From: Chitinivibrionales bacterium
GTDB taxonomy: Bacteria; Fibrobacterota; Chitinivibrionia; Chitinivibrionales; WJKA01
Assembly: GCA_014728295.1 (NCBI GenBank)
Contig: WJLW01000081.1
Coordinates: 17,295 to 81,294, forward strand
Length of the DNA: 64,000 bases
Direction: 5' to 3'
Below are positions 2,078-50,538 of this stretch, piece after piece. Both the position numbers and the translations under genes were made by a program. The notes below the pieces were generated by a model. That model worked only from the letters and a program-made list of their open reading frames with translations. It searched no databases and had not been told where the DNA came from. How positions within the stretch are numbered: position 1 is the first letter of the stretch; each line of letters opens with the position of its first letter.

Positions 2078-2080
2078 CAA

Positions 2081-8330: not shown

Positions 8331-10148
8331 TCATTTTTTCGGCTTTAAAATTGAAGCATACAGATTTTTATCGGAGAGCAGCTCCAATGCGGCTTTGAGT
8401 TGGACGTCATCGGCGAGTTTGGTGCGATACACCAGTTCGTTGTCCTGCCCGTATTCTCTTACCAGAAATGCTTCTCGGATGTATTTGCGGACTTCCTGTT
8501 CCACCTCGGCAAATTCACGTTTGCGCTCCTGCGCCAGAAGCCTCTCTATGCCCCGGCTGATTGATTCGAGCTCCTGCTTTTCCTGTTGGGTGAGTACGAT
8601 TGCCGGTTCATTGTCAATCGTATCCGCAGTATCGGGCTTTTCAATTTCAAGTCCGGCGTGCTGCTTGAAATCGTCAAAAGCAATATCCGCCATGGTCTTG
8701 TACTCGAAATCAATTGAGTCCAGAAATGCTCTGAAAGATGCATAGAGTTTATCATTGATGCTAAAACCGGTATCGATCGGAGCTTTGGCCTTTTTCAGCA
8801 TCGGGTGTTGCAGGTTTGCGAACTTAAAAAATGCGTCCCTGCCGAAGAGCGCCCGCACAATGTCATCAAACGACTCCGGCTCCACGATTGTGTCGGGAAT
8901 AATACCGCCGCCACCCAGTACGATACGTCCGTTTTTGGTGCGATATGCCGATGTGTCCTGCACAGTATCGGCGGCTTCCACAGATGTGGCCTGTGAACCT
9001 AGCGAAGCAGTGTCGATATTTTCCTGGTCGTCCTGGGCATCTCCATTGCCCCGGACATCATTTTCCGGCTTATTGATGCACCGCCCGGACGGTGTATAAT
9101 AAAAGGCCGTCGTCAATTTGATATGATGCGTTTTGTCAAGATACAGAATGCTCTGCACCGATCCCTTGCCAAAGGTCGTATCGCCCAGGACAATACCCCG
9201 GTCCCAGTCCTGGATGGCGCCGGCAACAATTTCGGAAGCGCTGGCGCTGGCCGGGTTCACCAATACGACCAGCGGCATATTTTCGGGAAAAACGGGGCTG
9301 GTTTTAACATAGAATTCTTTGTTCTGGCCGGGTGCTCTTCCTCTGGTCGAAACGACAAGTGATTTTTTTGGCAGGAATTTGGACGAAACTTCAATTGCCT
9401 GCGGCAACAAACCGCCCGGATTAAAGCGCAAGTCAAGCACCAATCCGTTGATGCCTTTTTTGACGAGAGTCTTGACCGATTTTTCGATCTCGTCCCCGGC
9501 TTCCTGCGAAAAAGTATTGAGGCGGATGTAGCCGATACTGTCGTCGAATACGCCGCTGAAAGGAACAGATTTGATTTTAATAATCTCGCGGGTGATGGTA
9601 AAATGCAGCGGTTTGGTTTCGCCTTTGCGGCGCACGGTAATGGAGACTTCGGTACCGGGTTTGCCGCGCAACTTGCCGACCGCCTCATCGAGCTTGATTC
9701 CTTTTGTTGACTTGCCTTCTATTTTGATAATCTGGTCTCCCGAACGAATACCGGCACGCGAGGCAGGCGTTCCCCCGATAGGCGTCATCACGGTCAGAAC
9801 ATTTTCACGGATGGAAATCTGTATGCCCAGACCGCCGAATTTGCCTTCGGTATGAATGCGTAGCTCTTCGAATTGTTTCTTTTCAAAGTAGCTCGTATGG
9901 GGATCAAGGATTTCGATCATTCCTTCGATAGCTTTATCGACGAGGTCTTTTGAGCTGACTTCTTCAACATAATTCTGGTGAATTTTGGTGGTAACATTGT
10001 CCAGCCGAATAATATCGGCGTAAAAATTATCGTCTTCGGCATCCGGGCGCACTTTGTCGGCCATCAAGCCGGTAATAACAACGACCAGCATGACGATTCC
10101 CAACAATGGCGTTTTGCCCAGCGGATGCTTCTTCGTCTGAGTACTCAT
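8331..10148 (-). CDS. ctp: Carboxy-terminal processing protease (S41 family) with PDZ domain
   Basis: TM anchor, PDZ (FGGLGIQI...GTPASRAGIRSGDQIIKIEG), S41 core (LRFNPGGLL, NPASASASEIVAGA, FGKGSVQS, GGGGIIPD), plus a ~190-aa C-terminal extension. Confidence 0.9.
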   Translation of the reverse strand: MSTQTKKHPLGKTPLLGIVMLVVVITGLMADKVRPDAEDDNFYADIIRLDNVTTKIHQNYVEEVSSKDLVDKAIEGMIEILDPHTSYFEKKQFEELRIHTEGKFGGLGIQISIRENVLTVMTPIGGTPASRAGIRSGDQIIKIEGKSTKGIKLDEAVGKLRGKPGTEVSITVRRKGETKPLHFTITREIIKIKSVPFSGVFDDSIGYIRLNTFSQEAGDEIEKSVKTLVKKGINGLVLDLRFNPGGLLPQAIEVSSKFLPKKSLVVSTRGRAPGQNKEFYVKTSPVFPENMPLVVLVNPASASASEIVAGAIQDWDRGIVLGDTTFGKGSVQSILYLDKTHHIKLTTAFYYTPSGRCINKPENDVRGNGDAQDDQENIDTASLGSQATSVEAADTVQDTSAYRTKNGRIVLGGGGIIPDTIVEPESFDDIVRALFGRDAFFKFANLQHPMLKKAKAPIDTGFSINDKLYASFRAFLDSIDFEYKTMADIAFDDFKQHAGLEIEKPDTADTIDNEPAIVLTQQEKQELESISRGIERLLAQERKREFAEVEQEVRKYIREAFLVREYGQDNELVYRTKLADDVQLKAALELLSDKNLYASILKPKK

Positions 10149-10169
10149 GTCTTCTCCCTTATCAGTGCT

Positions 10170-10820
10170 TCACGCATGCGCGATGCGCTTTTGTTCCAGT
10201 AAAAAGTCGAGTTTACTGATTATGTTCAAAGATAATTCATCAATGGGACGACCGCCATCCAGAAGCGTCATGCGCTGCGGATTGCTGCGCACCAGATCCT
10301 GATATCCCTGACGAACCCTCTTAAAGAAAGACCGCGAATTGCCTTCAAGACGGTCGGGCGATTTATCCATATTGTGTAATCGAGTATGTGCAATGTCAAT
10401 ATTGATGTCGAATACGAACGTATGATCGGGGGTGATACCGGCCGTGGCAAACGAGTTGCATTGCTGCACAGCTTGCAGATTCATGCCGCGTCCCCAGCCC
10501 TGATAAGCAAAAGTAGCCTCCTGAAAACGGTCGCATACGACAACCACGCCGTCTGCAAGGGCCGGCAGGATTTTTTCTTCGACATGCTGGGCGCGGGCGG
10601 CGAGGTAGAGCAATACTTCGCACCGGTCAACCATGGCATCATTGTCGGGAGACAGCAGCAGCGACCTGATCTTTTCAGCGATTCGGGTGCCCCCCGGCTC
10701 ACGCGTTGCCATGCAGGCAACACCACGGCGCTGCAACGATTCGACCGCACGCGCAACCTGAGTGCTTTTGCCGCAGCCGTCGACACCTTCAAAAGTGAGG
10801 AAAAGACCTTTTGGAATCAT
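10170..10820 (-). CDS. tmk: Thymidylate kinase
   Basis: P-loop FEGVDGCGKSTQ. I place the start at the second Met (MIPKG), whose ATG overlaps the secA stop as ATGA (10817-10820), suggesting translational coupling. Confidence 0.9.
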   Translation of the reverse strand: MIPKGLFLTFEGVDGCGKSTQVARAVESLQRRGVACMATREPGGTRIAEKIRSLLLSPDNDAMVDRCEVLLYLAARAQHVEEKILPALADGVVVVCDRFQEATFAYQGWGRGMNLQAVQQCNSFATAGITPDHTFVFDINIDIAHTRLHNMDKSPDRLEGNSRSFFKRVRQGYQDLVRSNPQRMTLLDGGRPIDELSLNIISKLDFLLEQKRIAHA

Positions 10821-13800
10821 GCAGTTGTTTTCCCGCAGCATTTTTTATACTTCTTGCCGCTGCCGCACGGACACGGATCGTTGCGTCCTACCTGCTGTGG
10901 AGCCCGCACGGGTGCAGGCTTCCCGCCGCCGGCCCGATTGGTTATCATTCGGCGTTTTCTGGCCGCAGCGGGAACCGAACCGTCCGAAGCGGGAGCGCTA
11001 CCGGGCCCGGCGAATACGTTGTAGCTGTCATGCTCGGTCTGCGCTCGGTTAAGTCCCATGCGATCCTGCTGCTCGACGACGTCGTCATAGCGAAAGATGT
11101 TCATGGTTACCTGACGGGCAATAGTGCTGCGTAATTCCGCAAATGCATTGAGCGCTTCTTTCTGGTATTCGTACAGCGGATTCTTCTGAGCATACGAGCG
11201 GAACTGCACCCCCTGCTTGAGATGGTCCATTTCGTAGAGATGATCTTTCCACAGGTTGTCAATTACCATCAGAAAGATGCTGCGCTCAAGACTCCGCATG
11301 AACAATTCGCCGCGGCTCTGTTCGCGTTCGTCGTAGGCCTTTTTTATTTCGGCGCCAATATCATCGTACAACGACTCGATAGATTTGCTGCTCACCTGCT
11401 CTTCGGGAATACTATAGATGATTCCAAAGCCCGCCTGCAGGTCTACATAAAGATCTTTGAGATGCCATTGCTCGGCATATTTGCTGTCTTCGGTATGTCT
11501 GAGCACCAGCTCTTCGAGAAAGATGGATATCTGCTCCATGATCTTGTGCTTGATGTTTTCGCCGCGCAAAATCTGTTGCCGCAAACCGTAAATCTCGGTT
11601 CGCTGCAGGTTCATGACATCATCGTACTCTTTGAGGTGCTTACGCTGATCGAAGTTACGTCCTTCAACCCGCTTTTGAGCGGAACCGATGGATCGCGATA
11701 CCAGCGGATGCGAAATGGCCTCCCCATCCTCAGCGCCCAGGCGGTCCATGATGCCGACCAGCCGTTCAGAACCGAAGATACGCATGAGATCGTCGTCGAG
11801 CGAAAGAAAAAATTTTGACGAGCCGGGATCGCCCTGGCGTCCGGCGCGACCGCGCAACTGGTTGTCAATGCGCCGGGCTTCATGACGCTCGGTGCCAATG
11901 ATGTGCAATCCGCCCAGTTCTTTGACCTTCTTTTGCTCTTCCTGTAATTCGCGGAAGAGTTTGGCGTATCGCTCGCGCCTCTCTTCACGACTGAGATCGT
12001 CGGCTTCAATCCCCTCTTTTGCAAGCTCCTGGTTAACCATTGCCTCAAAGTTGCCGCCCAGGACAATGTCGGTGCCGCGGCCGGCCATGTTGGTGGCAAT
12101 CGTTACCCCACCGATGCGCCCCGCCTGCGCCACAATGTGCGCTTCCCGGCTGTGCTGCTTGGCATTGAGTACCGAATGCTGAACGCCGACTTGCGTAAGC
12201 TTCTTGCTGAGCACTTCGGATTTCTCAATAGAGGTCGTGCCCACCAGAACCGGTCGGCCTTCTTCATTCATATGGCTGATCTCATCTGCAATGGCCCCGA
12301 CTTTTTCTTTTTGCGTCTTGTAAATTTCATCATCGTAGTCTGTGCGCGCCAGCGGACGATTAGTGGGGATAGTAACAACATCAAGTTTGTAAATGTCATG
12401 AAATTCGCCGGCCTCGGTTGCCGCCGTACCGGTCATGCCGGCAATTTTGCGATACATCTTGAAAAAATTCTGAAACGTAATCGTTGCCAGAGTCTGGTTT
12501 TCACCGGCTACCCGGACACGTTCTTTGGCCTCCAGCGCCTGATGCAGTCCTTCGCTGTAACGTCGCCCGTGCAGGATACGGCCGGTAAATTCATCAACAA
12601 TCAGAATTTGGCCGTCCTGCACGACATAATCAACATCACGCTCAAACATCGAATAGGCGCGCAGCAATTGGCTCGCCGAATGAATACGCTCCGACTTATC
12701 GGTGTATTGACGCTGGGCGTCTTCCCGCAAAAGCTGGCTCTCTTCGGGGCCGACCGGCAGGTTGTTACCCACGCGCTCGAGCATCGCATTTTTCTGATTG
12801 ACGTCTACGGTTTGAATGGATTTCACATGCTCGAACAGACGTGCGCGTTCGTCGCTGTCAAATGCCGGGCAATGCCGCAAGGCGCGGGTGGCGATCTCCT
12901 TTGCCCCGGCTTTGATTCCTTTTGCCGCATCAAGCGCCTGTTTGATCTGTTTGGCTTCTGAAGGGGCCAGCCGATGGTTGTTCTTGAGGCGTTGCGTCAA
13001 TTGCGAGCGCTCACGGGATGAAAGCGTTTTTGCAGAATCTGAAACTATGTGCACGAGCGCTTCCTGATCTTGCTTGTCAAGACGGTCATACTTATGAAAG
13101 TAGCTAAGCAGGCTTTCCCTGAGATCGGCTGACAGGTTTGTCTCGGAAACGATGCGGTACAGCTCATCTTTTTCATTGCGGGAAACATCGGCAAACGATG
13201 CAATTGCATCGGCAATTCGCGCCAGCGCGACCTGGTCCCCGGCAGTTTCGCGCCGCAGCAGTTCGCAAAGTCGCTTGGGCTCATTCAATGTGGCGCTATC
13301 GTAGCTTTTCAGGCACTCCAGTGCCTCGTTTTTGTCTTCTTTTGACCAGTCGTAGTAGATGGATACTATCTTCTTCAGTTCAACCTTATCCTGCTCTTTG
13401 AGAGAAGCATCAATTTCTATTATATGGTTGAGCCCCGAATAGTAATCAGACGACAGCTTGGCATTGCCGGCCAACTTCGCTTCGACTTCGGCCTGTACCT
13501 TCTGGATTATCTTTGCCTGTGACTGAACGATTGAGGTGATTGTTTGCTTTTCATCGGCCGAAAGCGGTTGGAGCAAGGCCACGAGCGCTTCAAGCTTTTT
13601 GATGTCAATGACGGAAAGATTGTCGCACTTTTTTATAACCTGCTTGATTACAACATCTTTCTGCTTCTGTGTCAAAGTGGGTATAGCGTTTACTTTCTCG
13701 ACCAGATCGGTGCGCTTTTCTTCGGGATAGGGGCGTACGTCTTCGTCCAGGGCGTTGACTTTATCCATATAGGGGAGGGAAGAAAACGCATTATTCTGAA

Positions 13801-15559
13801 TCAGCTCCAATAGTTTGTCGAGCTGTTTTGCGGTAAGAATCTGATTCCTTTTCAATGCATCGACCAGGGTAGTTATCTGGCGCGAATCGGAATCCGGATC
13901 TTTATTCAGAATGTCAATGATTTCATTGCGCTCGGCAAGTGTCAAGGGGATATTTTTGGCGATAATTGCTTCGAATTCTTCCCGCTTCTGCGCGATCAGC
14001 AGATCTTTGTCCTTGATTTTCTCAAACAAATCACGGTAGGCCGCACTGCTGCCTGCATTAAAAATTTTATACAATTCCACAATTTCGGTTAAACGCTTTT
14101 TGCGCAGTTCATCGCCGGGACTTGAGCCATACAGGTAAGCGTCGATGTCGCACAACTCCGTACTTTCCTGCTGTGACAGCGGCTCTGACTGTTTGACAAA
14201 ATCGGCCAGTTTCTGCTTGTGGGTGTCGTTCAGCCCGCGATTTTCATCGATGATCTTCTGGATTTTTTCAACCATGTCATAGTTCAACGGCTCGTTGCTC
14301 TCAATCGAAGCAACTAGTGATTCACGCTCCTGCGGTGTCAAAACGTCAATGATTTGTGCAAATTCGAGCAGCTTGGCCTTCTGGCCAATGGAGACTACAT
14401 CATTTTTCGTCACGGCATTGAGTGTTTCGGCCAGGTCGGGTACCACAAAAAAGTATGGGTCAGATTCGCTGATCAGCCGACGCCCCTTTTCGGTCAGCTC
14501 GGCACTGTGTCCCGATTCGTCAATCGAAAAGAAGAGCTGCTCGTCAATCTCATGCAGCTTGCGTTCGCGCAGGTACTCGGCTTCCACCGATTTCATTATT
14601 TTGCCGATACCGGGCTCTTTGAGCAGATTGAGCAATGGCGGATATTTCGGAGAGCCGCGCCGAACAGCCAGGAGCTTCAAACCGGCTTCAAAATGCTTCT
14701 CTTCGTCATCAAGCAATTTCTGAGCTTCGTCAAAGAGCTTTTTGATCAGATTTTTCTGCGCGGAGACGGCCTTTTCAACACGCGGGCGTAGCTCTTCATA
14801 TTCCTTGTTCGATTTGGTCACCGGACCCGATATAATCAGGGGCGTCCGGGCTTCATCTACCAGAATGTTGTCCACTTCGTCAATTATCGCATAATTCAAC
14901 TCGCGCTGTACGCACTGGTCGGCCGAAAAAGCCATATTGTCACGCAGGTAGTCAAAGCCGAATTCATTATTGGTACCATAGGTAATGTCGCAATTGTATG
15001 CTTCCCGCCGCTCTTCACTGCTGGGCTCGGTATTGTCCAGACAGCCCACGGTAAGGCCGAGAAAGCTGAATATTTTTCCCATCCACTCACTGTCGCGCCG
15101 GGCCAGATAGTCATTGACCGTAATGACATGCACGCCGCGTCCTTCAAGCGCGTTGAGATAGGCGGCCAGGGTTGCAACCTGGGTTTTTCCTTCACCGGTT
15201 TTCATTTCAGCTATTTTGCCCTGGTGCAAAACAACGCCGCCCATGATCTGCACATCAAAATGCGCCATAAAGGGGATCTCTTTTTTGGTATAGGGATCCT
15301 TGACCACACGCCCTTCACCCAACACCCGATGCGTCACCTCGCGCACCACAGAAAAAGCTTCGGGCAAAATATCATCAAGCGTCTCTCCCTGCGTCAATCG
15401 CTGCCGGAATTCAGCGGTTTTGTCCTGAAGCTGCTCATCGGAGAGAGTATGCATGGTCTCAGGGAAACCATTAACGCGATCAAGCACAGGATTCAAACCC
15501 TTTACATCACGATCCTGTTTTGAACCGAATATCCTGCCGACTATATTCATCAAGCTCAT
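10817..15559 (-). CDS. secA: Preprotein translocase ATPase SecA carrying a very large insertion in the preprotein-binding domain (1580 aa)
   Basis: Walker A MKTGEGKTQVATL, DEAD-like IIDEVDNILVDEARTPLIISG, conserved RDVDYVV.DG.I.IVDEFTGR...GRRYSEGLHQALEAKE, TNMAGRGTDI, and C-terminal zinc finger CPCGSGKKYKKCCG. About 565 extra residues lie between aa ~386 and ~951. Confidence 0.97.
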   Translation of the reverse strand: MSLMNIVGRIFGSKQDRDVKGLNPVLDRVNGFPETMHTLSDEQLQDKTAEFRQRLTQGETLDDILPEAFSVVREVTHRVLGEGRVVKDPYTKKEIPFMAHFDVQIMGGVVLHQGKIAEMKTGEGKTQVATLAAYLNALEGRGVHVITVNDYLARRDSEWMGKIFSFLGLTVGCLDNTEPSSEERREAYNCDITYGTNNEFGFDYLRDNMAFSADQCVQRELNYAIIDEVDNILVDEARTPLIISGPVTKSNKEYEELRPRVEKAVSAQKNLIKKLFDEAQKLLDDEEKHFEAGLKLLAVRRGSPKYPPLLNLLKEPGIGKIMKSVEAEYLRERKLHEIDEQLFFSIDESGHSAELTEKGRRLISESDPYFFVVPDLAETLNAVTKNDVVSIGQKAKLLEFAQIIDVLTPQERESLVASIESNEPLNYDMVEKIQKIIDENRGLNDTHKQKLADFVKQSEPLSQQESTELCDIDAYLYGSSPGDELRKKRLTEIVELYKIFNAGSSAAYRDLFEKIKDKDLLIAQKREEFEAIIAKNIPLTLAERNEIIDILNKDPDSDSRQITTLVDALKRNQILTAKQLDKLLELIQNNAFSSLPYMDKVNALDEDVRPYPEEKRTDLVEKVNAIPTLTQKQKDVVIKQVIKKCDNLSVIDIKKLEALVALLQPLSADEKQTITSIVQSQAKIIQKVQAEVEAKLAGNAKLSSDYYSGLNHIIEIDASLKEQDKVELKKIVSIYYDWSKEDKNEALECLKSYDSATLNEPKRLCELLRRETAGDQVALARIADAIASFADVSRNEKDELYRIVSETNLSADLRESLLSYFHKYDRLDKQDQEALVHIVSDSAKTLSSRERSQLTQRLKNNHRLAPSEAKQIKQALDAAKGIKAGAKEIATRALRHCPAFDSDERARLFEHVKSIQTVDVNQKNAMLERVGNNLPVGPEESQLLREDAQRQYTDKSERIHSASQLLRAYSMFERDVDYVVQDGQILIVDEFTGRILHGRRYSEGLHQALEAKERVRVAGENQTLATITFQNFFKMYRKIAGMTGTAATEAGEFHDIYKLDVVTIPTNRPLARTDYDDEIYKTQKEKVGAIADEISHMNEEGRPVLVGTTSIEKSEVLSKKLTQVGVQHSVLNAKQHSREAHIVAQAGRIGGVTIATNMAGRGTDIVLGGNFEAMVNQELAKEGIEADDLSREERRERYAKLFRELQEEQKKVKELGGLHIIGTERHEARRIDNQLRGRAGRQGDPGSSKFFLSLDDDLMRIFGSERLVGIMDRLGAEDGEAISHPLVSRSIGSAQKRVEGRNFDQRKHLKEYDDVMNLQRTEIYGLRQQILRGENIKHKIMEQISIFLEELVLRHTEDSKYAEQWHLKDLYVDLQAGFGIIYSIPEEQVSSKSIESLYDDIGAEIKKAYDEREQSRGELFMRSLERSIFLMVIDNLWKDHLYEMDHLKQGVQFRSYAQKNPLYEYQKEALNAFAELRSTIARQVTMNIFRYDDVVEQQDRMGLNRAQTEHDSYNVFAGPGSAPASDGSVPAAARKRRMITNRAGGGKPAPVRAPQQVGRNDPCPCGSGKKYKKCCGKTTA

Positions 15560-15564
15560 GCGTG

Positions 15565-16146
15565 CTAATCCTTTTCTATGCGGAAGTCACTGAATTCGAT
15601 ATCGATCACGCGGCTTTCGCGTAGTACGTTATTGACTTCAGCAATCAGTTCCGGGCGGAGCGTTTTAATCAAAACGTCTTCCATTTTTTTCCTGCCTAGT
15701 ACGTTTTGCACCATCACTTTCATGTCTTCCCGCTTGAAAAGAAGCTCATTGCGGGATGACGTATCGTTATAAAATACGAAAAGTGACAGGTGAACCGTCA
15801 TTTCAGCATTATCAAGCAGCTTGCAGGAAATAGTATTAAGCTCGATGTGGGGTTTTTCGGAGGATATTACGGTTGCAGCGCCGGATGCAGAAGCTGCATT
15901 CTCGGGAACTTGCATGGCGTCTGAGGTAATTTCAGCAGGTTGAGCCGCATCGGTGTCAGACGATTCTGCGGAAGGCTGATAGACTCGGGAAAGGTGTTCT
16001 GTACCGGCAGTGGGCCCGGGTGAGCCGGGCTGACTGTTATTGCGAAATACCAGATAAGCAATGCCGCCCGTCACTGCTGCGATAATGACCAGCAGCCATA
16101 TCCGTGCGGTTGTTTTTTTCTTTGCAAGCCACGCCGAATCAGTCAT
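15565..16146 (-). CDS. Single-pass membrane protein with FliL-like C-terminal domain
   Basis: N-terminal TM (IWLLVIIAAVTGGIAYLVF). The C-terminal ~90 aa follow the FliL pattern (MTVHLSLFVFYND...LRPELIAEVNNVLRESRVIDIEFSDFRIE). Its stop lies 5 nt upstream of the secA start. Confidence 0.45.
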   Translation of the reverse strand: MTDSAWLAKKKTTARIWLLVIIAAVTGGIAYLVFRNNSQPGSPGPTAGTEHLSRVYQPSAESSDTDAAQPAEITSDAMQVPENAASASGAATVISSEKPHIELNTISCKLLDNAEMTVHLSLFVFYNDTSSRNELLFKREDMKVMVQNVLGRKKMEDVLIKTLRPELIAEVNNVLRESRVIDIEFSDFRIEKD

Positions 16147-16160
16147 CGATCAGGTTTCTA

Positions 16161-16484
16161 CTACTTTGCATCCATTATCCGGCAGGCAACCGGAACGCCC
16201 CGGGAATACTTTTCAACAACAGAATCCACTTCCGCCTGACTTTGCGGCGGTATTTTCAAAAACTGCAGCCCGATCCGGTAGCCGTCGGTTCTGTCGACCG
16301 AGTAGGCAACTTTTGCGGCCAGCAAAATGTCATTCAGGCTGACCGTCACCTGCGCCCCCTTGTTCAATGCCTTGTCGTAAAGGCAACAGACACCGGTGGT
16401 ACTCAAATCAAAGAAAGTGCGATTTTCGGTATCGGAGTTGAGCTGCTCGATCCGATCGCTGCCTCGTTCGTTCATGGAAGCCAT
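16161..16484 (-). CDS. PilZ domain protein (c-di-GMP receptor)
   Basis: RxxxR motif (RGSDR) followed by D/NxSxxG (DLSTTG). I chose the start at MASMNE (16484) because AAGGAG lies 7 nt upstream; the listed ORF extends to 16535. Confidence 0.7.
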   Translation of the reverse strand: MASMNERGSDRIEQLNSDTENRTFFDLSTTGVCCLYDKALNKGAQVTVSLNDILLAAKVAYSVDRTDGYRIGLQFLKIPPQSQAEVDSVVEKYSRGVPVACRIMDAK

Positions 16485-16566
16485 ACAGAGACTCCTTGAT
16501 GTTGCCGGTGAAAAATGTATAGATTCGGGTTGCACACGCGGCCAGCACGTCCGTCAACCCGCAAAA

Positions 16567-17628
16567 TCAGGAATTGCCTTCGAATGCAAAGGGATAAACC
16601 ACTTCCGTCGGTTCGGAAATCTGACACGAACCAAACTTCCAGCGGCGTACATAGCGCAGAAGATTTTGCTCGAATTTTGAATTATTCATGGTCGATTTCA
16701 CGATGGATACGTTTGAGACGGCACCCGAGGGCAGGATGGTAAACTTGATCTTGAGGGAACCGGACAGTCCCGGATCGCGTTTGAGCCAGTTCTCGTACAC
16801 GCGTTTGATGCGGGGTTTCTGCCGGTTGACAACCTTGCCGATGCAGGCCTGGCTGGTAACCGCGGCGCCGGATTCGGACTTAACTTCGGGAGGGTTGCTG
16901 CTCATAACCACATCGCCGCCGGTTGACGCAATTCTATCGCTGCGGGCTTTGCCCAACTCCTGCTTTTGAATACCGACACCGCTGGTCCGGGTGCCGCGCT
17001 TTTTTGTCAATTCTTCGGGATCGACATTTTTCGTAGCAAAGGTTCCTTTGGATACGGAAATACCGGATAAATCGCTTACCCCGCCCGTAGCCCCCAACAG
17101 ATCTGAGATGCCCGACGATCTGCCGCCGCCGGAACCGTCGGAAGCCGTAATCGCGGCAAAAATGCCGGTGGATTGCACCTGCGATGCTACCTCCCGGCGC
17201 TTAGCTCTGCGCTGCTCGGCACTGGCTGCTTTGCGTTCCTGCTTTTCGGCAAATGATTCTTTTTCCCGATCTAACTGCGGCTTGTCCTCTTCTTCTTGCT
17301 GCCGGGTCGCTTCGGCCTCGCTTTCTGCTGTTTGAGCAGCTTCCTCCTCAACTTCCTGCGGCTTGGATTTGGGCTGGTCCAGCACCAGCCTGGCATAACG
17401 CTCCTGGATTTTGAGGATATCCTTTTCGGTAGCCTCCCGAGGAACTTCACGGGCAGACATATAGCCAAAAAAACCGCACAGCACGAGCGCCGTAACCAGC
17501 AGGATTATCAGGAATCGTTTATCGAGCCCGCCCAGCAAACGGCCGCGAAACTGGTTCGGAAAGCTCTTCAGCGCCGCCGAAGTTCCCGAAGATTTCGCAT
17601 AAAAAATACCGGTTTGCTTAACGTTCAT
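16567..17628 (-). CDS. TonB / AgmX-PglI-type C-terminal domain energy-transducer-like protein
   Basis: N-terminal TM, E/K/Q-rich charged spacer rather than a Pro-rich one, a Gly/Ser-rich segment, and a TonB-C-like end (GSLKIKFTILPSGAVSNVSIVKST...LLRYVRRWKF). The start lies 2 nt after the ExbD stop. Confidence 0.65.
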   Translation of the reverse strand: MNVKQTGIFYAKSSGTSAALKSFPNQFRGRLLGGLDKRFLIILLVTALVLCGFFGYMSAREVPREATEKDILKIQERYARLVLDQPKSKPQEVEEEAAQTAESEAEATRQQEEEDKPQLDREKESFAEKQERKAASAEQRRAKRREVASQVQSTGIFAAITASDGSGGGRSSGISDLLGATGGVSDLSGISVSKGTFATKNVDPEELTKKRGTRTSGVGIQKQELGKARSDRIASTGGDVVMSSNPPEVKSESGAAVTSQACIGKVVNRQKPRIKRVYENWLKRDPGLSGSLKIKFTILPSGAVSNVSIVKSTMNNSKFEQNLLRYVRRWKFGSCQISEPTEVVYPFAFEGNS

Positions 17629-17630
17629 GC

Positions 17631-18134
17631 TCAGTCTTTTCTGTAAACTATCAGATTCATCACCGGATAACCGGCCTGTCCGCAGGTATACATGATGCGG
17701 GTCAGCACATTGTAGGGAATCTCGACATCTCCCTGAATCGTAATTTCACCCGAAAACTCTTTGCCGAATAGCTCCGCAGATTTACGAGCCTCCCCGGCAT
17801 GTTTCTGCAGCACCTCGTACAGGCTTTGAATCATGAAATCTTTCTGTTCCGTGATCGCTTCATAATCCTGTTTATCAACTACCAGAGCATCCTCAACGGC
17901 AATCTGGTTGCGCGAGATTTTGACACTGAGCGCCTGCCCGGTGGTGCGTTCGATGGAAGATGCGGGCAATGTCAAGCCCTCGGCGGGAGTGATAAGCTGG
18001 CCCTGAGTGGAAAAACTTTTGAGCAGGAAGACAAGAATAATAGTAAACATATCCATCATAGAGGTGATATTGAGCTTGGCGTCGCCTTCGCTGCGATTGC
18101 GGCGAGCCTGTCTGCCTGCACGCGGGAGCGCCAT
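17631..18134 (-). CDS. exbD: ExbD/TolR family biopolymer transport protein
   Basis: Signature INITSMMDMFTIILVFLL TM and a periplasmic ExbD fold-like end (ITIQGDVEIPYNVLTRIMYTCGQAGY). Its start overlaps the upstream stop (TAATG at 18132-18136). Confidence 0.85.
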   Translation of the reverse strand: MALPRAGRQARRNRSEGDAKLNITSMMDMFTIILVFLLKSFSTQGQLITPAEGLTLPASSIERTTGQALSVKISRNQIAVEDALVVDKQDYEAITEQKDFMIQSLYEVLQKHAGEARKSAELFGKEFSGEITIQGDVEIPYNVLTRIMYTCGQAGYPVMNLIVYRKD

Positions 18135-19441
18135 TACTGGATTATCCCTCCTGCCAGAGATACATTGGGAAACATGGTTACTTTGCCGTTGGGATCGGCA
18201 AATCCCCGGGCGGCATCCATTACCGAAACGACAACCTGATAGGGAATTTTGTCTTCGGCCACAATTTTGACGCTTTCATGATCTTCAAAGGCCGCAATGC
18301 CGGAGAAATCATTTTTGGCATAAGTCGTATAGAGTTTGATCAAGGAGGCGTCATCCGGGATACCGGGATGCATCGAACGGATAATTTGCAATAATGCCTG
18401 CCGTTTTACATCTGCAAGTTCCTTGTTCAACTGTGCGAAATCATACTCCCGGCCATTTTTCGGAATTTCGGCATGAGTATCGGATGCTTGCGCCGGCTCA
18501 GTTGCGGTACTGTCATCAGATTTGAAATAGTGAAAGAGGTTGAAGCCCTTTTCGGTGATGACGATTCCAAGATTCAGCTTTGCCTGCTGCGCTTTTTCAG
18601 ATGCGCCGCCGCCTCCGCCGCCGAGTTGTGATTTGGGCAGCTTCAACTCGATGGCGCCGATTTTGACAAATTCAGCCGAAGTCAGCAGAAGCGGAATGAG
18701 AATAACCATTAAATTCATCATGGGGGCGATGTTGGGTTCGGTATCGACTTCCTGTTTAAGTCGCCGGGAAGACACCTTGTAATTTTTTTGCATCATGTCA
18801 AAGGGCGTCAGCACCTTTAGCACCGAAACGGCATAGCGGTCAATCTCTTGCACGGCCCGGTCGATTTTGGCACGCAGCATCGAATAGACCAGTATGCACG
18901 GCACGCTGATCATCAGCCCCATCAGGGTTGTGTTCATTGCGGTGGATATTCCCGAGGCGAGCATGGATGATTTATCAACCGCCGCTACGTTCGGCTGGGC
19001 AACCGCGGCAAAAGATAATATGAGACCGTAAATCGTTCCCATAAGTCCAAGCAGCGTTGAAATATTTCCCAGCATCAGAAGAAAATCAACCCGCTTTTCC
19101 AGAATAGGAATCATGTGCATGGTCTCTTCTTCCATTGAGGAGCGAATCAACTGAGGCGTCTTGGCCGCGCGCTGCAGCCCCGACCCGATAATGCGCGGCA
19201 GAGCCCTGCGCTTGCCCGCCAGACAGAGCTGATAGGCTTCATCCATTTTGTGCTCTTCGATGAGCTGCTTAATTTTATCAGCAAAGGACGGTGCGTCCAC
19301 ATCGGTGCGACTGCGGATGTCAAAAAAGCGATCCAGTATCAACAGCGCCGCCAGCAGCGCGATGACCGCCAGAACCCACATAAAAACGAAACCGTCCTGG
19401 CCCGGTAGAAAAGCTGTTAGAAGCTCAGTGAAAAGATTCAT
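18134..19441 (-). CDS. MotA/TolQ/ExbB proton-channel protein fused to a C-terminal ExbD-like domain
   Basis: aa 1-~225 form an ExbB core (TLLGLMGTIYGLILSFAAV, MNTTLMGL). aa ~235-435 are ExbD-like (NIAPMMNLMVILIPLLL ... KIVAEDKIPYQVVVSVMDAA) and include a GGGGGG linker. Confidence 0.8.
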   Translation of the reverse strand: MNLFTELLTAFLPGQDGFVFMWVLAVIALLAALLILDRFFDIRSRTDVDAPSFADKIKQLIEEHKMDEAYQLCLAGKRRALPRIIGSGLQRAAKTPQLIRSSMEEETMHMIPILEKRVDFLLMLGNISTLLGLMGTIYGLILSFAAVAQPNVAAVDKSSMLASGISTAMNTTLMGLMISVPCILVYSMLRAKIDRAVQEIDRYAVSVLKVLTPFDMMQKNYKVSSRRLKQEVDTEPNIAPMMNLMVILIPLLLTSAEFVKIGAIELKLPKSQLGGGGGGASEKAQQAKLNLGIVITEKGFNLFHYFKSDDSTATEPAQASDTHAEIPKNGREYDFAQLNKELADVKRQALLQIIRSMHPGIPDDASLIKLYTTYAKNDFSGIAAFEDHESVKIVAEDKIPYQVVVSVMDAARGFADPNGKVTMFPNVSLAGGIIQ

Positions 19442-19447
19442 ACAAGA

Positions 19448-20215
19448 TCAGACATTGATTTCTTTGATCAACTTGTTGTCGGTAAATATCTTGATGTTAT
19501 TGTGTGTAACATGTACACCGACGCCCTCTTTGAGCTGTGCGGCGCTAATGTGATATTTGTGCGTTTTGTAGGAACGCTCGACCAGGGTATTGACCAGTCG
19601 CAAACTGTATTCGTCAATCTCATCAATGATCTTCTGGGTTTTGGCACGAAAAAGCGCATAGAGAATGATCGAGGGGATAGCAACCAGCAGCCCGGTAAAG
19701 GTCGTGTTCATAGCGGCGGCAATACCCGAAGCCAGCAGGGTTGATTTTTCGGCAGCGTCGATACCCGGCTTTCCAACGGCGGCAAAGGAGAGTATCAATC
19801 CATAAATCGTTCCCATCAGCCCCAGCAGTGTTGCAACATTTCCGATAGTGGCAAGGTAGTTGGTACGCTTTTCCAGATCGGGAATGACTTTCAGCATCGC
19901 TTCGTCAATGGAATTGCGTATGCGATCCGCGCCGGATTTCGCTTCGGCCAGTCCGGCGTTAACCACGGTAGCGATGACCATTTTGCCGGCCTTTTTGCAC
20001 ATTTGTTTCGCACCGTCGATATCATCGCGCTCGATTTTGGTAAGGATCTCCTTCATAAAAAGTTCCGTTTTATATCCGGCCCTGCTCATCAGAAAGACGA
20101 AGCGCTCGATTGCAATGGCTACACAGAAAATTCCGACGACCAGCAGAACCCACATAAATACATAGCCCGGCTCCGATGGACTGAACGATACGAAAAACTT
20201 GGCAAAGAAATTCAT
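19448..20215 (-). CDS. exbB: MotA/TolQ/ExbB proton-channel family protein
   Basis: Three-TM ExbB core, with the TLLGLMGTIYGLILSFAAV segment identical to the downstream paralog. AAGGAG RBS upstream of the ATG. Confidence 0.88.
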   Translation of the reverse strand: MNFFAKFFVSFSPSEPGYVFMWVLLVVGIFCVAIAIERFVFLMSRAGYKTELFMKEILTKIERDDIDGAKQMCKKAGKMVIATVVNAGLAEAKSGADRIRNSIDEAMLKVIPDLEKRTNYLATIGNVATLLGLMGTIYGLILSFAAVGKPGIDAAEKSTLLASGIAAAMNTTFTGLLVAIPSIILYALFRAKTQKIIDEIDEYSLRLVNTLVERSYKTHKYHISAAQLKEGVGVHVTHNNIKIFTDNKLIKEINV

Positions 20216-20405
20216 ACAGACTCCTTAGTTGGTTCGGCGGACGTGGCTGAACCCACTTGAATAAAACCCTTTGATTGTGTTACATATCTCCAATAAAAGC
20301 TAGTAAGATACATTATTCGAACGAGCAAAGTAAGTACGGCTACCAGCGAACAATACCAAATAGAACCATCGGCACGAGTAAGCCATTACCCTGCTTTGAC
20401 GGCTG

Positions 20406-20729
20406 TTACGGCGTGTAGTTGATAATCTGCTTGTCTCGAAATTCAAACGCGCCGTCGTAGGGTGATTTTTCTATAATTGTATTGTCGACAAAGTCAATTA
20501 AATTTTCGGCGGCGCCCATGCTCTGGATAACCATGGGCCCGAATTCGGGCCGTTTATCAGCCTTGATAAGCACCATTTGGGGCCGACGGATTTTTCCCTC
20601 AATACGTTGCTCTTCAAAAATGATACGGACTTTTTTGCCGGATTTTGCAGCAAAAGCATGCAGGGGAACCAGCGCCGCGAGGCAGAGCAATGCGACAAAC
20701 ACACGACGGCAGGTAAACCAGTTTTTCAT
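20406..20729 (-). CDS. Hypothetical small secreted protein
   Basis: Signal peptide from the internal Met (MKNWFTCRRVFVALLCLAALVPLHAFA). No recognisable motif. Lies 190 nt upstream of the exbB operon on the same strand. Confidence 0.4.
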   Translation of the reverse strand: MKNWFTCRRVFVALLCLAALVPLHAFAAKSGKKVRIIFEEQRIEGKIRRPQMVLIKADKRPEFGPMVIQSMGAAENLIDFVDNTIIEKSPYDGAFEFRDKQIINYTP

Positions 20730-20903
20730 GTCAATCTCAAAGGCAAATAGCTTATAGCCGAGCATAGTAAAAAGATACCATTAGTATGGGCTAAGATCAA
20801 TACAATATACAACTTATGAGGTCACCCGCAAAGACATGCACGAAGTTATTTATTTTAGTCTCAGGTGAAATATAAGAATCTATATCATCCTAAGAGATGA
20901 TTC

Positions 20904-21518
20904 ATGAGAAAGCAAACGATGAGCAGCATATTGCACCGTGCCAGAGAGATTATCGATTTTGAGGCCGAGATCCTCAAAAAAATACCCCTTGATGAGCATT
21001 TTGAGAGCGCCCTGCACTGTCTGAGAAAGTGCACCGGAAAAGTCATTACGACCGGAATGGGCAAAGCCGGCAAAATAGCTCACAAAATGGCAGGCACCCT
21101 CAGCTCCACGGGCACGCCTGCCTGCTATCTGCATCCGGGTGAAGCCGAGCACGGCGATCTGGGTCTGCTGGGCCCGGGTGATGTTATCATTGCCTACTCG
21201 ACTAGTGGCAAGACCAGAGAAGTTATCGAAATGCTGGAGCTTTCGCGCCACCTCGGCATCGTCTCAATTATCGGGATCACCTCACACCCCGATTCGCTAA
21301 TTCACGATTGTGCCGAAATTGTCATCAACATGGGGGTCATTGAAGAGCCCTGCCCGCTGGGTCTGACGCCGACCGCCAGTACCGTGGCCATGCTGGCGAT
21401 CAGCGATGCGCTGGCGCTGGTACTGATGGAACAGAAAAAAGTCACCCGCGACGACTATGGCTTGCGCCACCATGGGGGGTATCTGGGACTTAAGGCCCGC
21501 CAGGCGGCTGCCGGATGA
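20904..21518 (+). CDS. SIS-domain sugar-phosphate isomerase (KdsD/KpsF-like, no CBS pair)
   Basis: TGMGKAGKIAHKMAGTLSSTGTPACYLHPGEAEHGDLG and IAYSTSGKTREV match the arabinose-5-P isomerase SIS domain. Its stop overlaps the nadB start (ATGA). Confidence 0.7.
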   Translation: MRKQTMSSILHRAREIIDFEAEILKKIPLDEHFESALHCLRKCTGKVITTGMGKAGKIAHKMAGTLSSTGTPACYLHPGEAEHGDLGLLGPGDVIIAYSTSGKTREVIEMLELSRHLGIVSIIGITSHPDSLIHDCAEIVINMGVIEEPCPLGLTPTASTVAMLAISDALALVLMEQKKVTRDDYGLRHHGGYLGLKARQAAAG

Positions 21519-23158: not shown

Positions 23159-25120
23159 ATGAATGCCATAATCGCCATCTGGATATGTGCCGCCGGTCTC
23201 ATCGCCATCTACGCAGCGCTTTATTACCTGCGCTTTTGCAGGAGATCATGGAATGCGTATGCACTCCTGGGTATCAGGCTGGCACTCTTGATCGTGCTCA
23301 CCCTTGTTATTGTCAAGCCTTCCTGCACCATAAACCGTCTCAGCCACCCCGAAGCGATCATTCCTTTGCTTGTCGACGGCTCGCAGAGCATGCAAATGTT
23401 TGATCCCGATTCACTGACTGCATATATCACGCGTCTGCAAAACACGGCGAAAGAGCTACATCTGAAAGTACCGCTCATTCTCTTCGGCGATTCGTCGCGC
23501 GCCGTAGCGAGCATCGATGCCGAAGATTTTAATGACGAACACAGCAGCTTTCCCGGCCACTTTGCCAATCAACGGGTCGACCGGGCGCCACTCATGATCG
23601 TCCTTACCGACGGCAACTGGTCCAATACGGCTATCCCGTATGAGACAGTACGCAACAGGGAGATCCACTTTCTGGAGTTGGGCAGTATCTCGGTTTCCGA
23701 CCGCACGGCCATGCGGCTTCTTGACATACCAGACGCAACACCGCAGGACGAAGCAGCCTCGGCACTGATTGTGTTGAGCGGCAGCAGGTCCGCCGACGAC
23801 ACGCTGCTAGTGGTACATCGCCATGGGCGCCATGCCGAGCGGCTGCATTCGACAGCTCTGCGGGCAGGCAGATTCAACGATACACTCCGGATTCCACTCG
23901 CAACAGATTCGGTCGGGCGCCGGCTGCACAAGCTGCATGCGGTAGATGCTGCAGATTCCGTCATTGCAACAGCCTCGTTCGTTCACACGGTAATCCCGGA
24001 GAAATTTGGCATCGCCCTCTATTGCGCACAACCACGGCTAGACAAAAGATTTTTTGCGCTGGCGATTGACCGGGATTCGTCCTGGCGGCGCATAGATTCG
24101 GCAACCAAACCCGGTGAAGTAAATGCGCTGGTCTGCTTTGACTGGAATCGCACGGCGCGTCAAAAAGCCGCGTCCTTGGGCACGCCCGCCGTTGCGGCAT
24201 GCATCGGATGTTTGCCGGAAGCAGCAGGCAGTTCACCCCTGCAGGTGCGCCAAGTAACACTGATTGCGCATGATGAAACCCCGGATGTGATGCGCATCCA
24301 GGCCCGGCGCAGCATTCCCGCTCCGGATCTGATTCTGCAGGGATCCTGGCGTACGGATCCGCCCCTGTCGCTGCTCGACGCTTCCGTTGTCTATCGCTTT
24401 AAGGGCCGCACTCTTGCCGATACCGTTCCGATAGTGCTTGAACGTTCCGACATGCTCATTGTTGGAGCGGCGGGTATCTGGAAATGGGACTTTTTGCCTG
24501 CCGGCATAAACAGTGCAGAGCAGGAGACATTCGCCCGGGCACTGCTTGACATTATGAAAGCGAAGCTTATCCGCAAATCGGCCGGGAGCTTTCTGGTACA
24601 TCGCAGCAGCGGCTCTGCAGTTTCGCAAGCTCAGGGACTCTCGCTGCGCTTACTATTTCCGGCTACCTGGACGAAGATCGAAAAGGCAGAGGTTGCGATA
24701 AATCTGAATGACAGCGCACATAAGATCCATTTTGATTCAACCTGCTCGCTTGCACTCGGGGGGTTTTTTGAAAAGCAAGTCCATTTCCCGCCGTTGCCAC
24801 CGGGGCGCTACAGCCTTTCGGCTACGGCCCGTACAGGTGCTTTAACCCAACATTACACAGATGAGCTCATTGTCTTCGGACATAATCACGAATTGATGAT
24901 TACCGGGCAGAATCACTCGCTGCTCAATCGCATCAGCCACCCCCTCACCCCCTCAAAAGAAGCCTATGTTAAGTTACTTTCGAACAAAAAGCAGGTTTTA
25001 AGCTCTCCGCGAACCTCGGCAATGAACATATCGGTGCGGCAAACCTGGCATTTTCTACTGGCAATTCTGGTGCTTTTCGGCGCAGAGTGGTGGATACGAA
25101 AACGCCGCTCGCTCGATTAA
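23159..25120 (+). CDS. Membrane protein with N-terminal double-TM segment and vWA-like domain (BatA/BatB-like)
   Basis: Two N-terminal TM helices, a MIDAS-like DxSxS (VDGSQSM), LTDGNWS, and a C-terminal TM (WHFLLAILVLFGAEWWIRKR). Confidence 0.45.
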   Translation: MNAIIAIWICAAGLIAIYAALYYLRFCRRSWNAYALLGIRLALLIVLTLVIVKPSCTINRLSHPEAIIPLLVDGSQSMQMFDPDSLTAYITRLQNTAKELHLKVPLILFGDSSRAVASIDAEDFNDEHSSFPGHFANQRVDRAPLMIVLTDGNWSNTAIPYETVRNREIHFLELGSISVSDRTAMRLLDIPDATPQDEAASALIVLSGSRSADDTLLVVHRHGRHAERLHSTALRAGRFNDTLRIPLATDSVGRRLHKLHAVDAADSVIATASFVHTVIPEKFGIALYCAQPRLDKRFFALAIDRDSSWRRIDSATKPGEVNALVCFDWNRTARQKAASLGTPAVAACIGCLPEAAGSSPLQVRQVTLIAHDETPDVMRIQARRSIPAPDLILQGSWRTDPPLSLLDASVVYRFKGRTLADTVPIVLERSDMLIVGAAGIWKWDFLPAGINSAEQETFARALLDIMKAKLIRKSAGSFLVHRSSGSAVSQAQGLSLRLLFPATWTKIEKAEVAINLNDSAHKIHFDSTCSLALGGFFEKQVHFPPLPPGRYSLSATARTGALTQHYTDELIVFGHNHELMITGQNHSLLNRISHPLTPSKEAYVKLLSNKKQVLSSPRTSAMNISVRQTWHFLLAILVLFGAEWWIRKRRSLD

Positions 25121-29203: not shown

Positions 29204-29625
29204 AACAGCTTGTCCCCACTTAGTACAAGGTAAAGCAGCTTCATTGCCCTGACCATCATATATGTCAAGGCACAGGCGGCGCCGAATTGCAGAATACGCA
29301 GCACGCTGGTTATTTGCTTGAAGTATTTCATGAGCATAAATTGGATTGCCTGTTAAAAATACACAAATTTCGCATCCACAATTGCGTCAGGCAAGCATGA
29401 TGGCTTGCCTGGTAGAATGGCTCGATTAGGCGCTGCACCCCAGCACAACGATTGAGGGAAAAAACGATAAGCAAATTAGGCGAATACACAAATGATTTTC
29501 GCCAATAAACGGTGGAACGCTCCCCGAATCCCAGACCGAATTTGCGAAAACTTATTTTAGCCTGTACTAGTACTGTAATTCGACTTTCATTTTTTAACTC
29601 CACACTTTGGAGAAAGGAGCTTCGC

Positions 29626-34144: not shown

Positions 34145-34705
34145 TTATTCTTGCTCTTCGCTGACTAATATGCTTTTCTCGCCCTTACCGTTGTATGGTC
34201 GAACTCGCTGTATTGCTGTACTGTCTTCCGCTTTTGACGAATCGTGAGGAAGGTCCCCTGCAAGCTGCATTTTATCATTAGCTTCTACTACCGGAGAGGT
34301 TGGTTGCTGCGGGATTGCATTGCGCTCCTTTGCAAGCCTGACAGCTTCCTGCCGGGTATCTTCAATCAGATAGACAAAGTAGCCGGCACCGGCAAATCCA
34401 ATAACCACCAGAAGTGCCGAAACGGCAACCCGCCTGAATAAGCCTGAAAACAAACCAAGCGAGGTTGTTTTTGCAGAGCTGGAGCAAACGCGTAAGATTT
34501 CGGCATCAGTTTGAGCTGAGGGCGAGGCTCCCAACACTTCGACGGTAAAGAGCGATTGTGATGATACCCGATAGTCGGCAAGGTGCTTCCTGCAATACGC
34601 GCATTTATCCAGATGGCGCTCGTAGGCCGCTTTCTGTTTATGAGTAAGTTCATCAGATGTATACAAAAGTCCGTCGGTTCCCCATTTAGTACACTCCATG
34701 GACAC
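34145..34705 (-). CDS. Anti-sigma factor (zf-HC2 type, single TM)
   Basis: H-x3-C-x2-C motif (HLDKCAYC), central TM (VAVSALLVVIGFAGAGYFVYLI). Overlaps the upstream ECF sigma gene by 20 nt. Confidence 0.7.
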   Translation of the reverse strand: MSMECTKWGTDGLLYTSDELTHKQKAAYERHLDKCAYCRKHLADYRVSSQSLFTVEVLGASPSAQTDAEILRVCSSSAKTTSLGLFSGLFRRVAVSALLVVIGFAGAGYFVYLIEDTRQEAVRLAKERNAIPQQPTSPVVEANDKMQLAGDLPHDSSKAEDSTAIQRVRPYNGKGEKSILVSEEQE

Positions 34706-35249
34706 CTCTCTTTTCTAGCTCTTTGCGAATGTTTTTCAAAGCTAACCTCATTCTTCCCAGAGCGGTATTGATAGGACAGTTCATTATTCTTGCAATATCT
34801 TTAAAAGGCACATCGCCAAGCTCTCGCAACAGAAAGACTTCCCGTTGAATGGGATCTAATACTTGCACCGCTTCATTAATCAGATCCCGCATCCTGCGAT
34901 TAGTAACCTCGCTTTCGGGCGAGTCAAACCTACTTCCAACCGAACCAATCGTATCCTGTTTGTGTTCGATTTCGACTTTTGCATGCCTGAAAAAATCGAT
35001 TGTTCGTTTGTGCGCTATGCCAAAGAGCCAGCTCAGAAAGCTTCGCTTTCGATCGAACTGGTCAAGATTCCTCATAGCAGCAATGAAAGTATCCTGCAAG
35101 AGGTCTTCGGCTTTTTCCATATCGGCCGTTAATCTGAGAAGAAATCCCAAGACCCGATCTTTGTATTTATCATAGAGCTGCGAAAATCCTTTTTGATCGC
35201 CTTTGGCCCAGAGCTCTACCAGGACCTTATCTTCTTCTCGTTCGTTCAT
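34686..35249 (-). CDS. ECF (RpoE-like) sigma-70 family factor
   Basis: Region 2 (DLLQDTFIAAMRNLDQFD, SFLSWLFGIAHKRTIDFFR) and region 4 (REVFLLRELGDVPFKDIARIMNCPINTALGRMRLAL). Confidence 0.88.
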   Translation of the reverse strand: MNEREEDKVLVELWAKGDQKGFSQLYDKYKDRVLGFLLRLTADMEKAEDLLQDTFIAAMRNLDQFDRKRSFLSWLFGIAHKRTIDFFRHAKVEIEHKQDTIGSVGSRFDSPESEVTNRRMRDLINEAVQVLDPIQREVFLLRELGDVPFKDIARIMNCPINTALGRMRLALKNIRKELEKRGVHGVY

Positions 35250-44740: not shown

Positions 44741-44778
44741 ATTCTCCTCCACCGAAATAAAATTGACAACCAGTTGGT

Positions 44779-50449: not shown

Positions 50450-50506
50450 TTAGCAAGGCGGGTAACGCAATTTAGCGTTCAAATAGAATTTGTTGCCGAC
50501 GGATGC

Positions 50507-50538
50507 AGGAACGGGGAAACCGCTCCTGTATTTTTTTT
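50507..50538 (+). terminator. Rho-independent terminator after the ferredoxin gene
   Basis: AGGAACGG-GGAAA-CCGCTCCT hairpin (7 of 8 bp paired) followed by GTA-T8. Confidence 0.6.

Follow-up and report, generated by a model that had tools for sequence, protein, structure and literature searches.

Introduction

The Ton, Tol and Agl systems and the flagellar stators are now viewed as one family of 5:2 motors, and little is understood of how those outside the flagellum are turned on and off. The Agl-Glt machine of Myxococcus xanthus has a 'core complex' of AglRQS with GltD, GltE, GltG and GltC, and a related core was found in one Fibrobacteres genome (Luciano et al. 2011, PMC3169522). Here we describe eight co-directional genes on the minus strand (20765-10817 in the open reading frame (ORF) listing) of a 64,000-nucleotide stretch from a Chitinivibrionales bacterium (contig WJLW01000081.1), called the window throughout, where an ExbB/ExbD-type motor block is followed by genes for a PilZ protein, a FliL-like protein and SecA. 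Our preferred reading, to which we give a probability of about one half, is that this is a vertically inherited modular array found throughout the Chitinivibrionales, comprising a minimal envelope energizer of the Agl/Glt or Ton kind, probably tuned by PilZ, together with a FliL paralog that is locked to secA.

AglR interacts with GltG in the Agl-Glt machine (PMC3169522), and a beta-strand of GltF, the protein also called CglF (PMC4488436), has been modeled as pairing with GltG at its TonB-type C-terminal domain (PMC11761067). GltF has been reported as limited to Myxococcales and Bdellovibrionales. In flagellar stators the plug-and-linker region of MotB is the part that FliL surrounds (PMC11725899). 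Fusions, PilZ and cyclic di-GMP (c-di-GMP) go unmentioned for these motors in two overviews (PMC12505986, PMC12905483), and a full-text literature search that combined FliL or PilZ with ExbB/ExbD gave the Campylobacter FlgX paper as the only relevant one.

The motor and its transducer

The first module can be assigned with high confidence to the inner-membrane motors of Ton/Tol/Agl type that are driven by the proton motive force, here built from ExbB, an ExbB-ExbD' fusion and ExbD, with a transducer of the GltG/TonB family. The ExbB/TolQ/AglR-type proton-channel subunit (255 aa; 19448-20215, on the minus strand like the rest of the array) passes the PF01618 threshold with 92.6 bits; its best NCBIfam match is TolQ (TIGR02796), at 75.7 bits and under the cut-off of that model. 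Next come the fusion (435 aa; 18134-19441, minus), whose two parts pass PF01618 with 88.3 bits and PF02472 with 42.3 bits, and a stand-alone ExbD/TolR-type subunit (167 aa; 17631-18134, minus), which passes PF02472 with 50.1 bits. These are the three identities that an earlier note on the window had proposed from the ORF translations, and the profiles agree with them. ExbB shares 39% identity with the ExbB half of the fusion, and its C-terminal tail can be aligned with the linker of the fusion, which suggests an origin by duplication.

The fusion runs from an ExbB part (residues 1-211) through a disordered linker (about 212-238) to an ExbD-type transmembrane helix (239-266) and a periplasmic domain, a topology confirmed by its AlphaFold2 (AF2) monomer model, in which the disordered linker takes up about 27 residues. 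We collected 296 homologs, the best 120 of which are all fusions. In the fused ExbD the transmembrane position of the essential Asp of ExbD, TolR and MotB is taken by Asn243, so that this part passes PF02472 yet lacks the conserved protonatable Asp. Asn is found there in every family member with a visible transmembrane motif, more than 100 homologs that include the top matches and all of the loci surveyed. The stand-alone ExbD keeps its transmembrane Asp (Asp28), and 10 of 10 orthologs share the motif TSM[MIV]DMFT.

Together, the Asp/Asn asymmetry and the fusion imply a stalk that would be a single-Asp heterodimer tethered to a channel subunit. From the precedents of ExbB5D2 and AglR5QS (PMC11761067, PMC12905483), we infer that an ExbB-type pentamer probably surrounds an ExbD/ExbD' heterodimer in a 5:2-type complex with only one protonatable Asp, and that one ExbB protomer of the pentamer would be supplied by the fusion. 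Such a protomer is topologically possible because the C-terminus of ExbB and the N-terminus of ExbD are both cytoplasmic and the linker is some 27 residues long. We also considered, and dropped, the idea that a covalent tether must forbid rotation: where only one chain is joined to the stalk, at its free cytoplasmic end, that chain is able to swivel. A fused ExbB-ExbD' with an invariant Asp-to-Asn replacement is a natural probe of the rotary model, namely of whether a motor of this kind can run when a single Asp is protonatable and the stalk is tethered to the rotor. The Zorya anti-phage system was tried as a further candidate and rejected: a PADLOC scan gave only weak generic ZorA matches (at most 22.6 bits) and no match to ZorB or to an effector.

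The transducer (353 aa; 16567-17628, minus) has a short cytoplasmic N-terminus of about 35 residues, one transmembrane helix, a spacer that is first rich in Glu, Lys and Gln and then in Gly and Ser, and a TonB-type C-terminal domain. It scores 81.8 bits against the AgmX/PglI C-terminal domain model NF033768 (cut-off 40). Against the GltG model NF033760 it scores 100 bits (E=1e-28; cut-off 650) over model positions 320-646 only, which is to say that the part from the transmembrane helix to the C-terminus matches and that the full-length GltG equivalog, with its cytoplasmic FHA domain, is not reached. This GltG match is far stronger than any to the TonB or TolA equivalogs. The generic TonB C-terminal domain models are also passed, PF03544 with 34.5 bits (cut-off 24.6) and TIGR01352 with 41.3 bits (cut-off 27.1). 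No FHA domain and no Pro-rich spacer were found in the protein, in keeping with the earlier description of a TonB/AgmX-type C-terminal domain behind an E/K/Q-rich rather than Pro-rich spacer.

A GltF-like protein at the head of the block

A seventh conserved gene, overlooked in the earlier note, lies upstream of exbB (20406-20765, minus) and encodes a small secreted protein of 119 aa with a signal peptide. We call it GltF-like from its synteny and from a sub-threshold match to the CglF model NF033764, against which the window protein scores 16 bits (E=0.009) where the equivalog cut-off is 90 bits. Sub-threshold matches to this model were found in seven of eight orthologs (best E=3e-4), covering model positions 32-64 only. 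In 11 loci the gene opens the block, and the core FEEQ(K/R)IEGKIRRPQ(L/M)VLIKA..RP is invariant across the orthologs.

By analogy with Agl-Glt, the GltF-like protein is a putative periplasmic ligand of the transducer, and its RRPQLVLIKA strand may dock on the transducer C-terminal domain, probably in the fashion of a TonB box. The motor would then pull on the GltF-like ligand, or on a target bridged by it, and so energize a process of the outer envelope, as in Ton, Tol and Agl-Glt. With a GltG-like transducer and a GltF-like upstream gene, the output of the motor is less unknown than the earlier note had it. By eye, the PQLVLIKA stretch of the core has the look of a TonB box of the DTLVVTA type. 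The peptide considered as a ligand of the transducer C-terminal domain is KIIFEEQKIEGKIRRPQLVLIKA.

The PilZ protein

The gene that follows the transducer (16161-16484, minus; the longest ORF starts at a GTG at 16535) encodes a stand-alone PilZ protein of 104-107 aa. It scores 35.4 bits against PF07238 (cut-off 22.5) and carries both motifs of the receptor family, RGSDR for RxxxR and DLSTTG for DxSxxG, as the earlier note had read them; both are kept in 15 of 15 complete orthologs. The spacing between the motifs is 14 residues, which is shorter than in classical PilZ domains, and the family has a C-terminal motif of its own, VDKFSRGVP. The protein is a single domain and does not have the two-domain architecture of YcgR and MotI, in which a YcgR N-terminal domain precedes PilZ.

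From its position and motifs we take this second module, with moderate confidence, to be a stand-alone c-di-GMP-type PilZ that serves as a candidate regulator of the motor. Its target would probably be the motor, at the cytoplasmic face, or else the short N-terminus of the transducer, which is the position held in Myxococcus GltG by the FHA domain. The balance of evidence leans towards modulation of the motor by c-di-GMP through PilZ, and a conserved PilZ attached to a Ton/Agl-type operon is a concrete candidate for c-di-GMP control of envelope energization. Elsewhere in the window (50490-52487, plus) a protein with GAF and HD_5 domains, of HD-GYP type, is a likely c-di-GMP phosphodiesterase; the organism is thus equipped for c-di-GMP signaling.

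The FliL-like protein

The last gene before secA (15565-16146, minus) encodes a protein of 193 aa, identified as having a FliL fold from a family profile and from an AF2 model compared with FliL structures. It begins with an N-terminal SxW..KKK motif; one transmembrane helix is followed by a near-invariant NN, and a disordered linker leads into the C-terminal domain (residues 100-193), a conserved unit of 95 residues. The earlier note had said that the C-terminus follows the FliL pattern. On PF03748 alone this falls short, the window protein scoring 12.6 bits where the gathering threshold is 24.6. On the level of the family and the fold the claim stands: PF03748 matches 52 of 101 family members at E<1 (best 1.5e-6), and a profile of the 101 members, searched against the PDB, finds FliL only (9hmf_O, E=2e-9; 7sgn, E=1e-6). 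The AF2 model has a helix at residues 4-37 and a C-terminal domain with a predicted local distance difference test score above 94, and the top Foldseek matches are the FliL proteins of C. jejuni and H. pylori (9hmf_O and 7sgn; TM-score 0.83-0.84, root-mean-square deviation 1.8-1.9 Å). SPFH proteins (stomatin, HflK/C) rank next among the structural matches.

We conclude that the call of a FliL fold is right at the level of the model, an N-terminal transmembrane helix being joined to a periplasmic alpha/beta domain of FliL/SPFH type, and that strict membership in the Pfam family does not follow from it. A word-indexed homolog search with this protein returned only the protein itself, and an exhaustive HMMER search gave 169 clusters that form one homogeneous family, none of them resembling ordinary FliL. 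In about 25 loci the gene is never beside mot or fli genes, so that it is not encoded with a flagellar stator or switch (motAB, fliMN) as FliL is. This third module would be a lineage-specific FliL paralog, which may form a FliL-type ring around the ExbD-type stalks.

Layout and synteny of the array

The six genes from exbB to the FliL-like gene lie exactly where the earlier note had placed them, and the gaps from exbB to secA, taken in order, are 6, -1, 2, 82, 14 and 5 nt; the last of these agrees with the 5 nt claimed before the start of secA. The downstream neighbor that stays constant is secA itself (1580 aa; 10817-15559, minus), which in turn overlaps tmk (10817-10841). Tight spacing was considered as a sign of partnership and rejected, because secA and tmk overlap as well and the close packing is therefore a general trait of the gene row and not a specific sign of partnership. 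A promoter and terminator scan of 10000-21500 gave terminator-like sites at shuffle level and no convincing promoter. Among window ORFs of at least 150 aa there is no flagellar gene, no TolB, no Pal and no TonB-dependent receptor, as the earlier note had also found, and profiles and gene content alike support its view of an Exb/Tol/Agl-type rather than a flagellar operon.

The SecA of the window contains a 548-aa helical insertion, rich in Lys, Glu and Leu, between residues 396 and 945, with no detectable internal repeats; the SecA proteins of all relatives examined are 1020-1046 aa long.

Our synteny survey covered about 25 related contigs, and a metagenome scan was made with a 15-sequence alignment of the FliL-like protein. 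The arrangement that the earlier note had described for the window proved to be conserved across many Chitinivibrionales contigs. The full order (GltF-like, ExbB, fusion, ExbD, GltG-like, PilZ, FliL-like, secA, tmk) is found in the window and in L001, L003, L008, L012, L013, L020, L024 and L026, and it recurs partially on shorter contigs (L002, L004, L005, L009, L011, L015-L017, L019 and L022), while the identities of the block proteins among these relatives go down to about 45-70%. Blocks were scored where the stretch from the transducer to secA is visible, which was so in 16. PilZ comes right after the transducer in 15 of these and the FliL-like gene is present in 14. Wherever the FliL-like gene is present, in every locus, it lies directly 5' of secA, often with a 4-nt ATGA overlap, and secA is the only invariant neighbor of the array. 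In L023 and a 678-kb JGI contig both outer flanks differ, yet the block, PilZ, secA and tmk are together. From this pattern, the array is ancient in the Chitinivibrionales and made of separable modules.

In the window the upstream flank holds a 653-aa protein without a family match (23159-25120, plus), beside nadB, whose homologs are 23-29% identical in the relatives that share this flank.

Weighing the explanations

Several observations weigh against the reading we prefer. The FliL-like gene is missing from L023 and the JGI contig, both of which keep PilZ; it occurs at the secA site without a motor block in L006/L007 and in L021, where it is the only one of these genes; and in L014 the secA site has PilZ and the FliL-like gene without the Exb block. 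One block that is complete in other respects, L025, has no PilZ. GltD, GltE and GltC are not adjacent to the block in the window or in its relatives, and the assignment of the GltF-like protein is, as its scores indicate, a resemblance below the family cut-off and not membership. Two giant tetratricopeptide repeat (TPR) proteins of the window (29512-34053, plus, 1513 aa; 35468-39187, minus, 1239 aa) have weak matches to GltE, PrsT and PilW; they were considered as equivalents of GltD, GltE, GltC or GltI and rejected, the matches being generic TPR matches only. The transducer passes the generic TonB C-terminal model too, and an ordinary role in TonB-dependent uptake is possible for it. Finally, adjacency within a long, packed, co-directional housekeeping row (secA, tmk, an S41 protease and a SurA-like protein) is weak evidence of partnership. 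In L014, positions 1-2457 encode an 818-aa secreted protein of right-handed beta-helix type, which precedes PilZ, the FliL-like gene and secA in place of the Exb block.

Because the FliL-like gene is kept where the motor block is absent and has been lost from two blocks, we consider it tied to secA and not to the motor; its genomic behavior shows a paralog independent of the adjacent motor, whose partner could be this motor, a flagellar stator or Sec. This bears most directly on the proposal of the earlier note, that all of the genes (its six, or seven with the GltF-like gene) form a single machine, in which c-di-GMP-bound PilZ would brake or clutch an ExbBD-type motor from the cytoplasmic side and a FliL-type ring around the ExbD stalks would stabilize it on the periplasmic side. 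The full co-linear array does recur, in at least 12 contigs, the FliL fold is genuine and the PilZ motifs are intact, the FliL-like family is homogeneous over its 169 clusters with a shared SxW..KKK-transmembrane-NN signature, and the homologous MotAB stator has just these two, PilZ and FliL, as its known accessory partners (PMC11725899). The traveling of the accessories with the motor, however, holds for PilZ, the loss in L025 apart, and fails for the FliL-like gene, which follows secA and is lost or kept independently of the block. Non-flagellar ExbD-type subunits also typically lack the flagellar MotB plug-and-linker domain (PMC12505986), and we regard the single machine as rather unlikely. 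The idea that the FliL-like protein belongs to the Exb motor is further weakened by the flagellation of the lineage: Chitinivibrionia genomes encode flagellar genes, MotA and MotB included (PMC4704652), and cultured species have a polar flagellum (PMC4814513), so that PilZ and the FliL-like protein could serve an ordinary MotAB stator. They would then be a MotL/YcgR-like regulator and a FliL, placed by history between an unrelated Ton/Agl-type operon and secA. The nearest structures are indeed flagellar FliLs, the genes occur without the block in L014 (both) and in L006/L007 and L021 (FliL-like alone), and in L022 flgA, flgH and flgI (193-3131 of that contig) lie 4 kb upstream of the block. 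We nevertheless find this explanation unlikely, as neither gene adjoins mot or fli genes in the survey, the FliL-like protein is too divergent for the Pfam FliL threshold, and PilZ and the Exb block are found together in two clades whose outer flanks differ. Between the flg genes and the block, L022 has a divergent nadB and a 624-aa homolog of the 653-aa protein mentioned above.

The constant position 5' of secA in 100% of the loci, often with the ATGA overlap, would also fit a FliL-fold protein concerned with protein export, an SPFH/FliL-type membrane scaffold co-expressed with SecA and independent of the Exb/GltG/PilZ block; the SPFH proteins that follow FliL in the structural matches are organizers of membrane protein complexes. 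Yet secA and tmk overlap in the same way without a functional link, which makes the overlap a property of the operon, and secA lacks a FliL-like gene in two contigs. We know of no precedent for an interaction between FliL and Sec, and rate this explanation as very improbable. The remaining alternative is a plain TonB-ExbB-ExbD system that serves TonB-dependent receptors, in which the TonB spacer is atypical and the small genes are incidental. Operons of the form ExbB-ExbD-ExbD-TonB are common, the transducer passes TIGR01352, and one relative has a TonB-dependent receptor 8 kb away. Against this, the AgmX/PglI and GltG scores are far above those of the TonB equivalogs, the two marks of a Ton transducer (a Pro-rich rigid spacer and TonB-dependent receptor partners) were not seen in the window, a conserved GltF-like gene and PilZ accompany the block, and both the fusion and the Asn of ExbD' are peculiar features that are conserved; we hold a plain Ton system to be decidedly unlikely. 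The modular array, with PilZ as its probable regulator and the FliL paralog following secA, thus remains our preference. A wider generalization, by which ion-driven 5:2 motors at large would share a FliL ring and PilZ as their control kit, the present case being a Ton/Agl-type envelope motor with an Asp/Asn stalk tethered to its own rotor subunit, appears improbable; if true, it would add the first case of a 5:2 motor outside flagella that has a FliL scaffold and is gated directly by c-di-GMP.

Other features of the window

An extracytoplasmic function (ECF) sigma/anti-sigma pair (34145-35249) lies between the two giant TPR proteins. Farther along, an ankyrin-repeat protein (42729-44042, minus, 437 aa) and a serpin (45376-46590, minus, 404 aa), both uncommon in bacteria, have between them a CRP-family regulator (44084-44812) and a 174-aa ORF. 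A tyrosine recombinase/integrase (52958-54082, plus) is followed by large ORFs without a Pfam match (54079-55647, 56204-57649 and 62249-63793) and by a CarboxypepD_reg/PEGA protein of 1522 aa, and this region may be mobile or variable.

Comparison with known systems

With the Ton and Tol systems (PMC12905483) the block shares the gene order of channel, stalk and transducer and the TonB-type C-terminal domain, and with Tol in particular a charged helical spacer like TolA domain II and an ExbB whose best NCBIfam match is TolQ. It differs in that all equivalog scores are far below cut-off, the spacer is not Pro-rich, no TolB, Pal or CpoB is encoded nearby and no TonB-dependent receptor in the window, while a duplicated channel gene with a fusion, and PilZ and FliL-like neighbors, are present instead. 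The set that defines Tol-Pal, tolQ-tolR-tolA with tolB, pal and cpoB, is accordingly not what we see: the scores for TolQ, TolR and TolA fall far short of their cut-offs, and the window has neither TolB nor Pal.

The flagellar MotAB stator with FliL and its PilZ partners (YcgR, MotI, FlgZ, MotL, FlgX; PMC11725899) is likewise a motor of the 5:2 superfamily, and a single-transmembrane FliL-fold protein and PilZ are encoded beside the motor in our array. The channel here, however, is of the three-transmembrane ExbB/TolQ type without the torque-generating cytoplasmic domain of MotA, and there is a TonB-like transducer where the stator has a rotor. PilZ consists of one domain, without the YcgR N-terminal domain, and the FliL-like protein is a divergent, secA-anchored paralog.

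In Agl-Glt of M. xanthus, as here, a TolQ/ExbB-type channel is combined with two different TolR/ExbD-type subunits in a heterodimer (AglQ and AglS there), a single-transmembrane transducer with an AgmX/PglI-type TonB-like C-terminal domain and a small secreted GltF-like protein. The differences are that our block has no adjacent GltD, GltE or GltC, so that of the 'core complex' only the motor and a gltG-like gene are represented; that the window has no GltA, GltB, GltH, GltK or CglB outer-membrane parts; that the transducer has no FHA domain; that one of the ExbD-type subunits, with Asn for Asp, is joined in a fusion to a second subunit of ExbB type; and that the transducer gene is followed by genes for PilZ and a FliL-fold protein. 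The Agl-Glt core is the closest known system, and a GltG-like/GltF-like pair without the remaining Glt apparatus may reveal the role of an ancestral gliding-machine core in non-gliders. With Chitinivibrio alkaliphilus and Chitinispirillum alkaliphilum there are relatives in culture that make experiments feasible.

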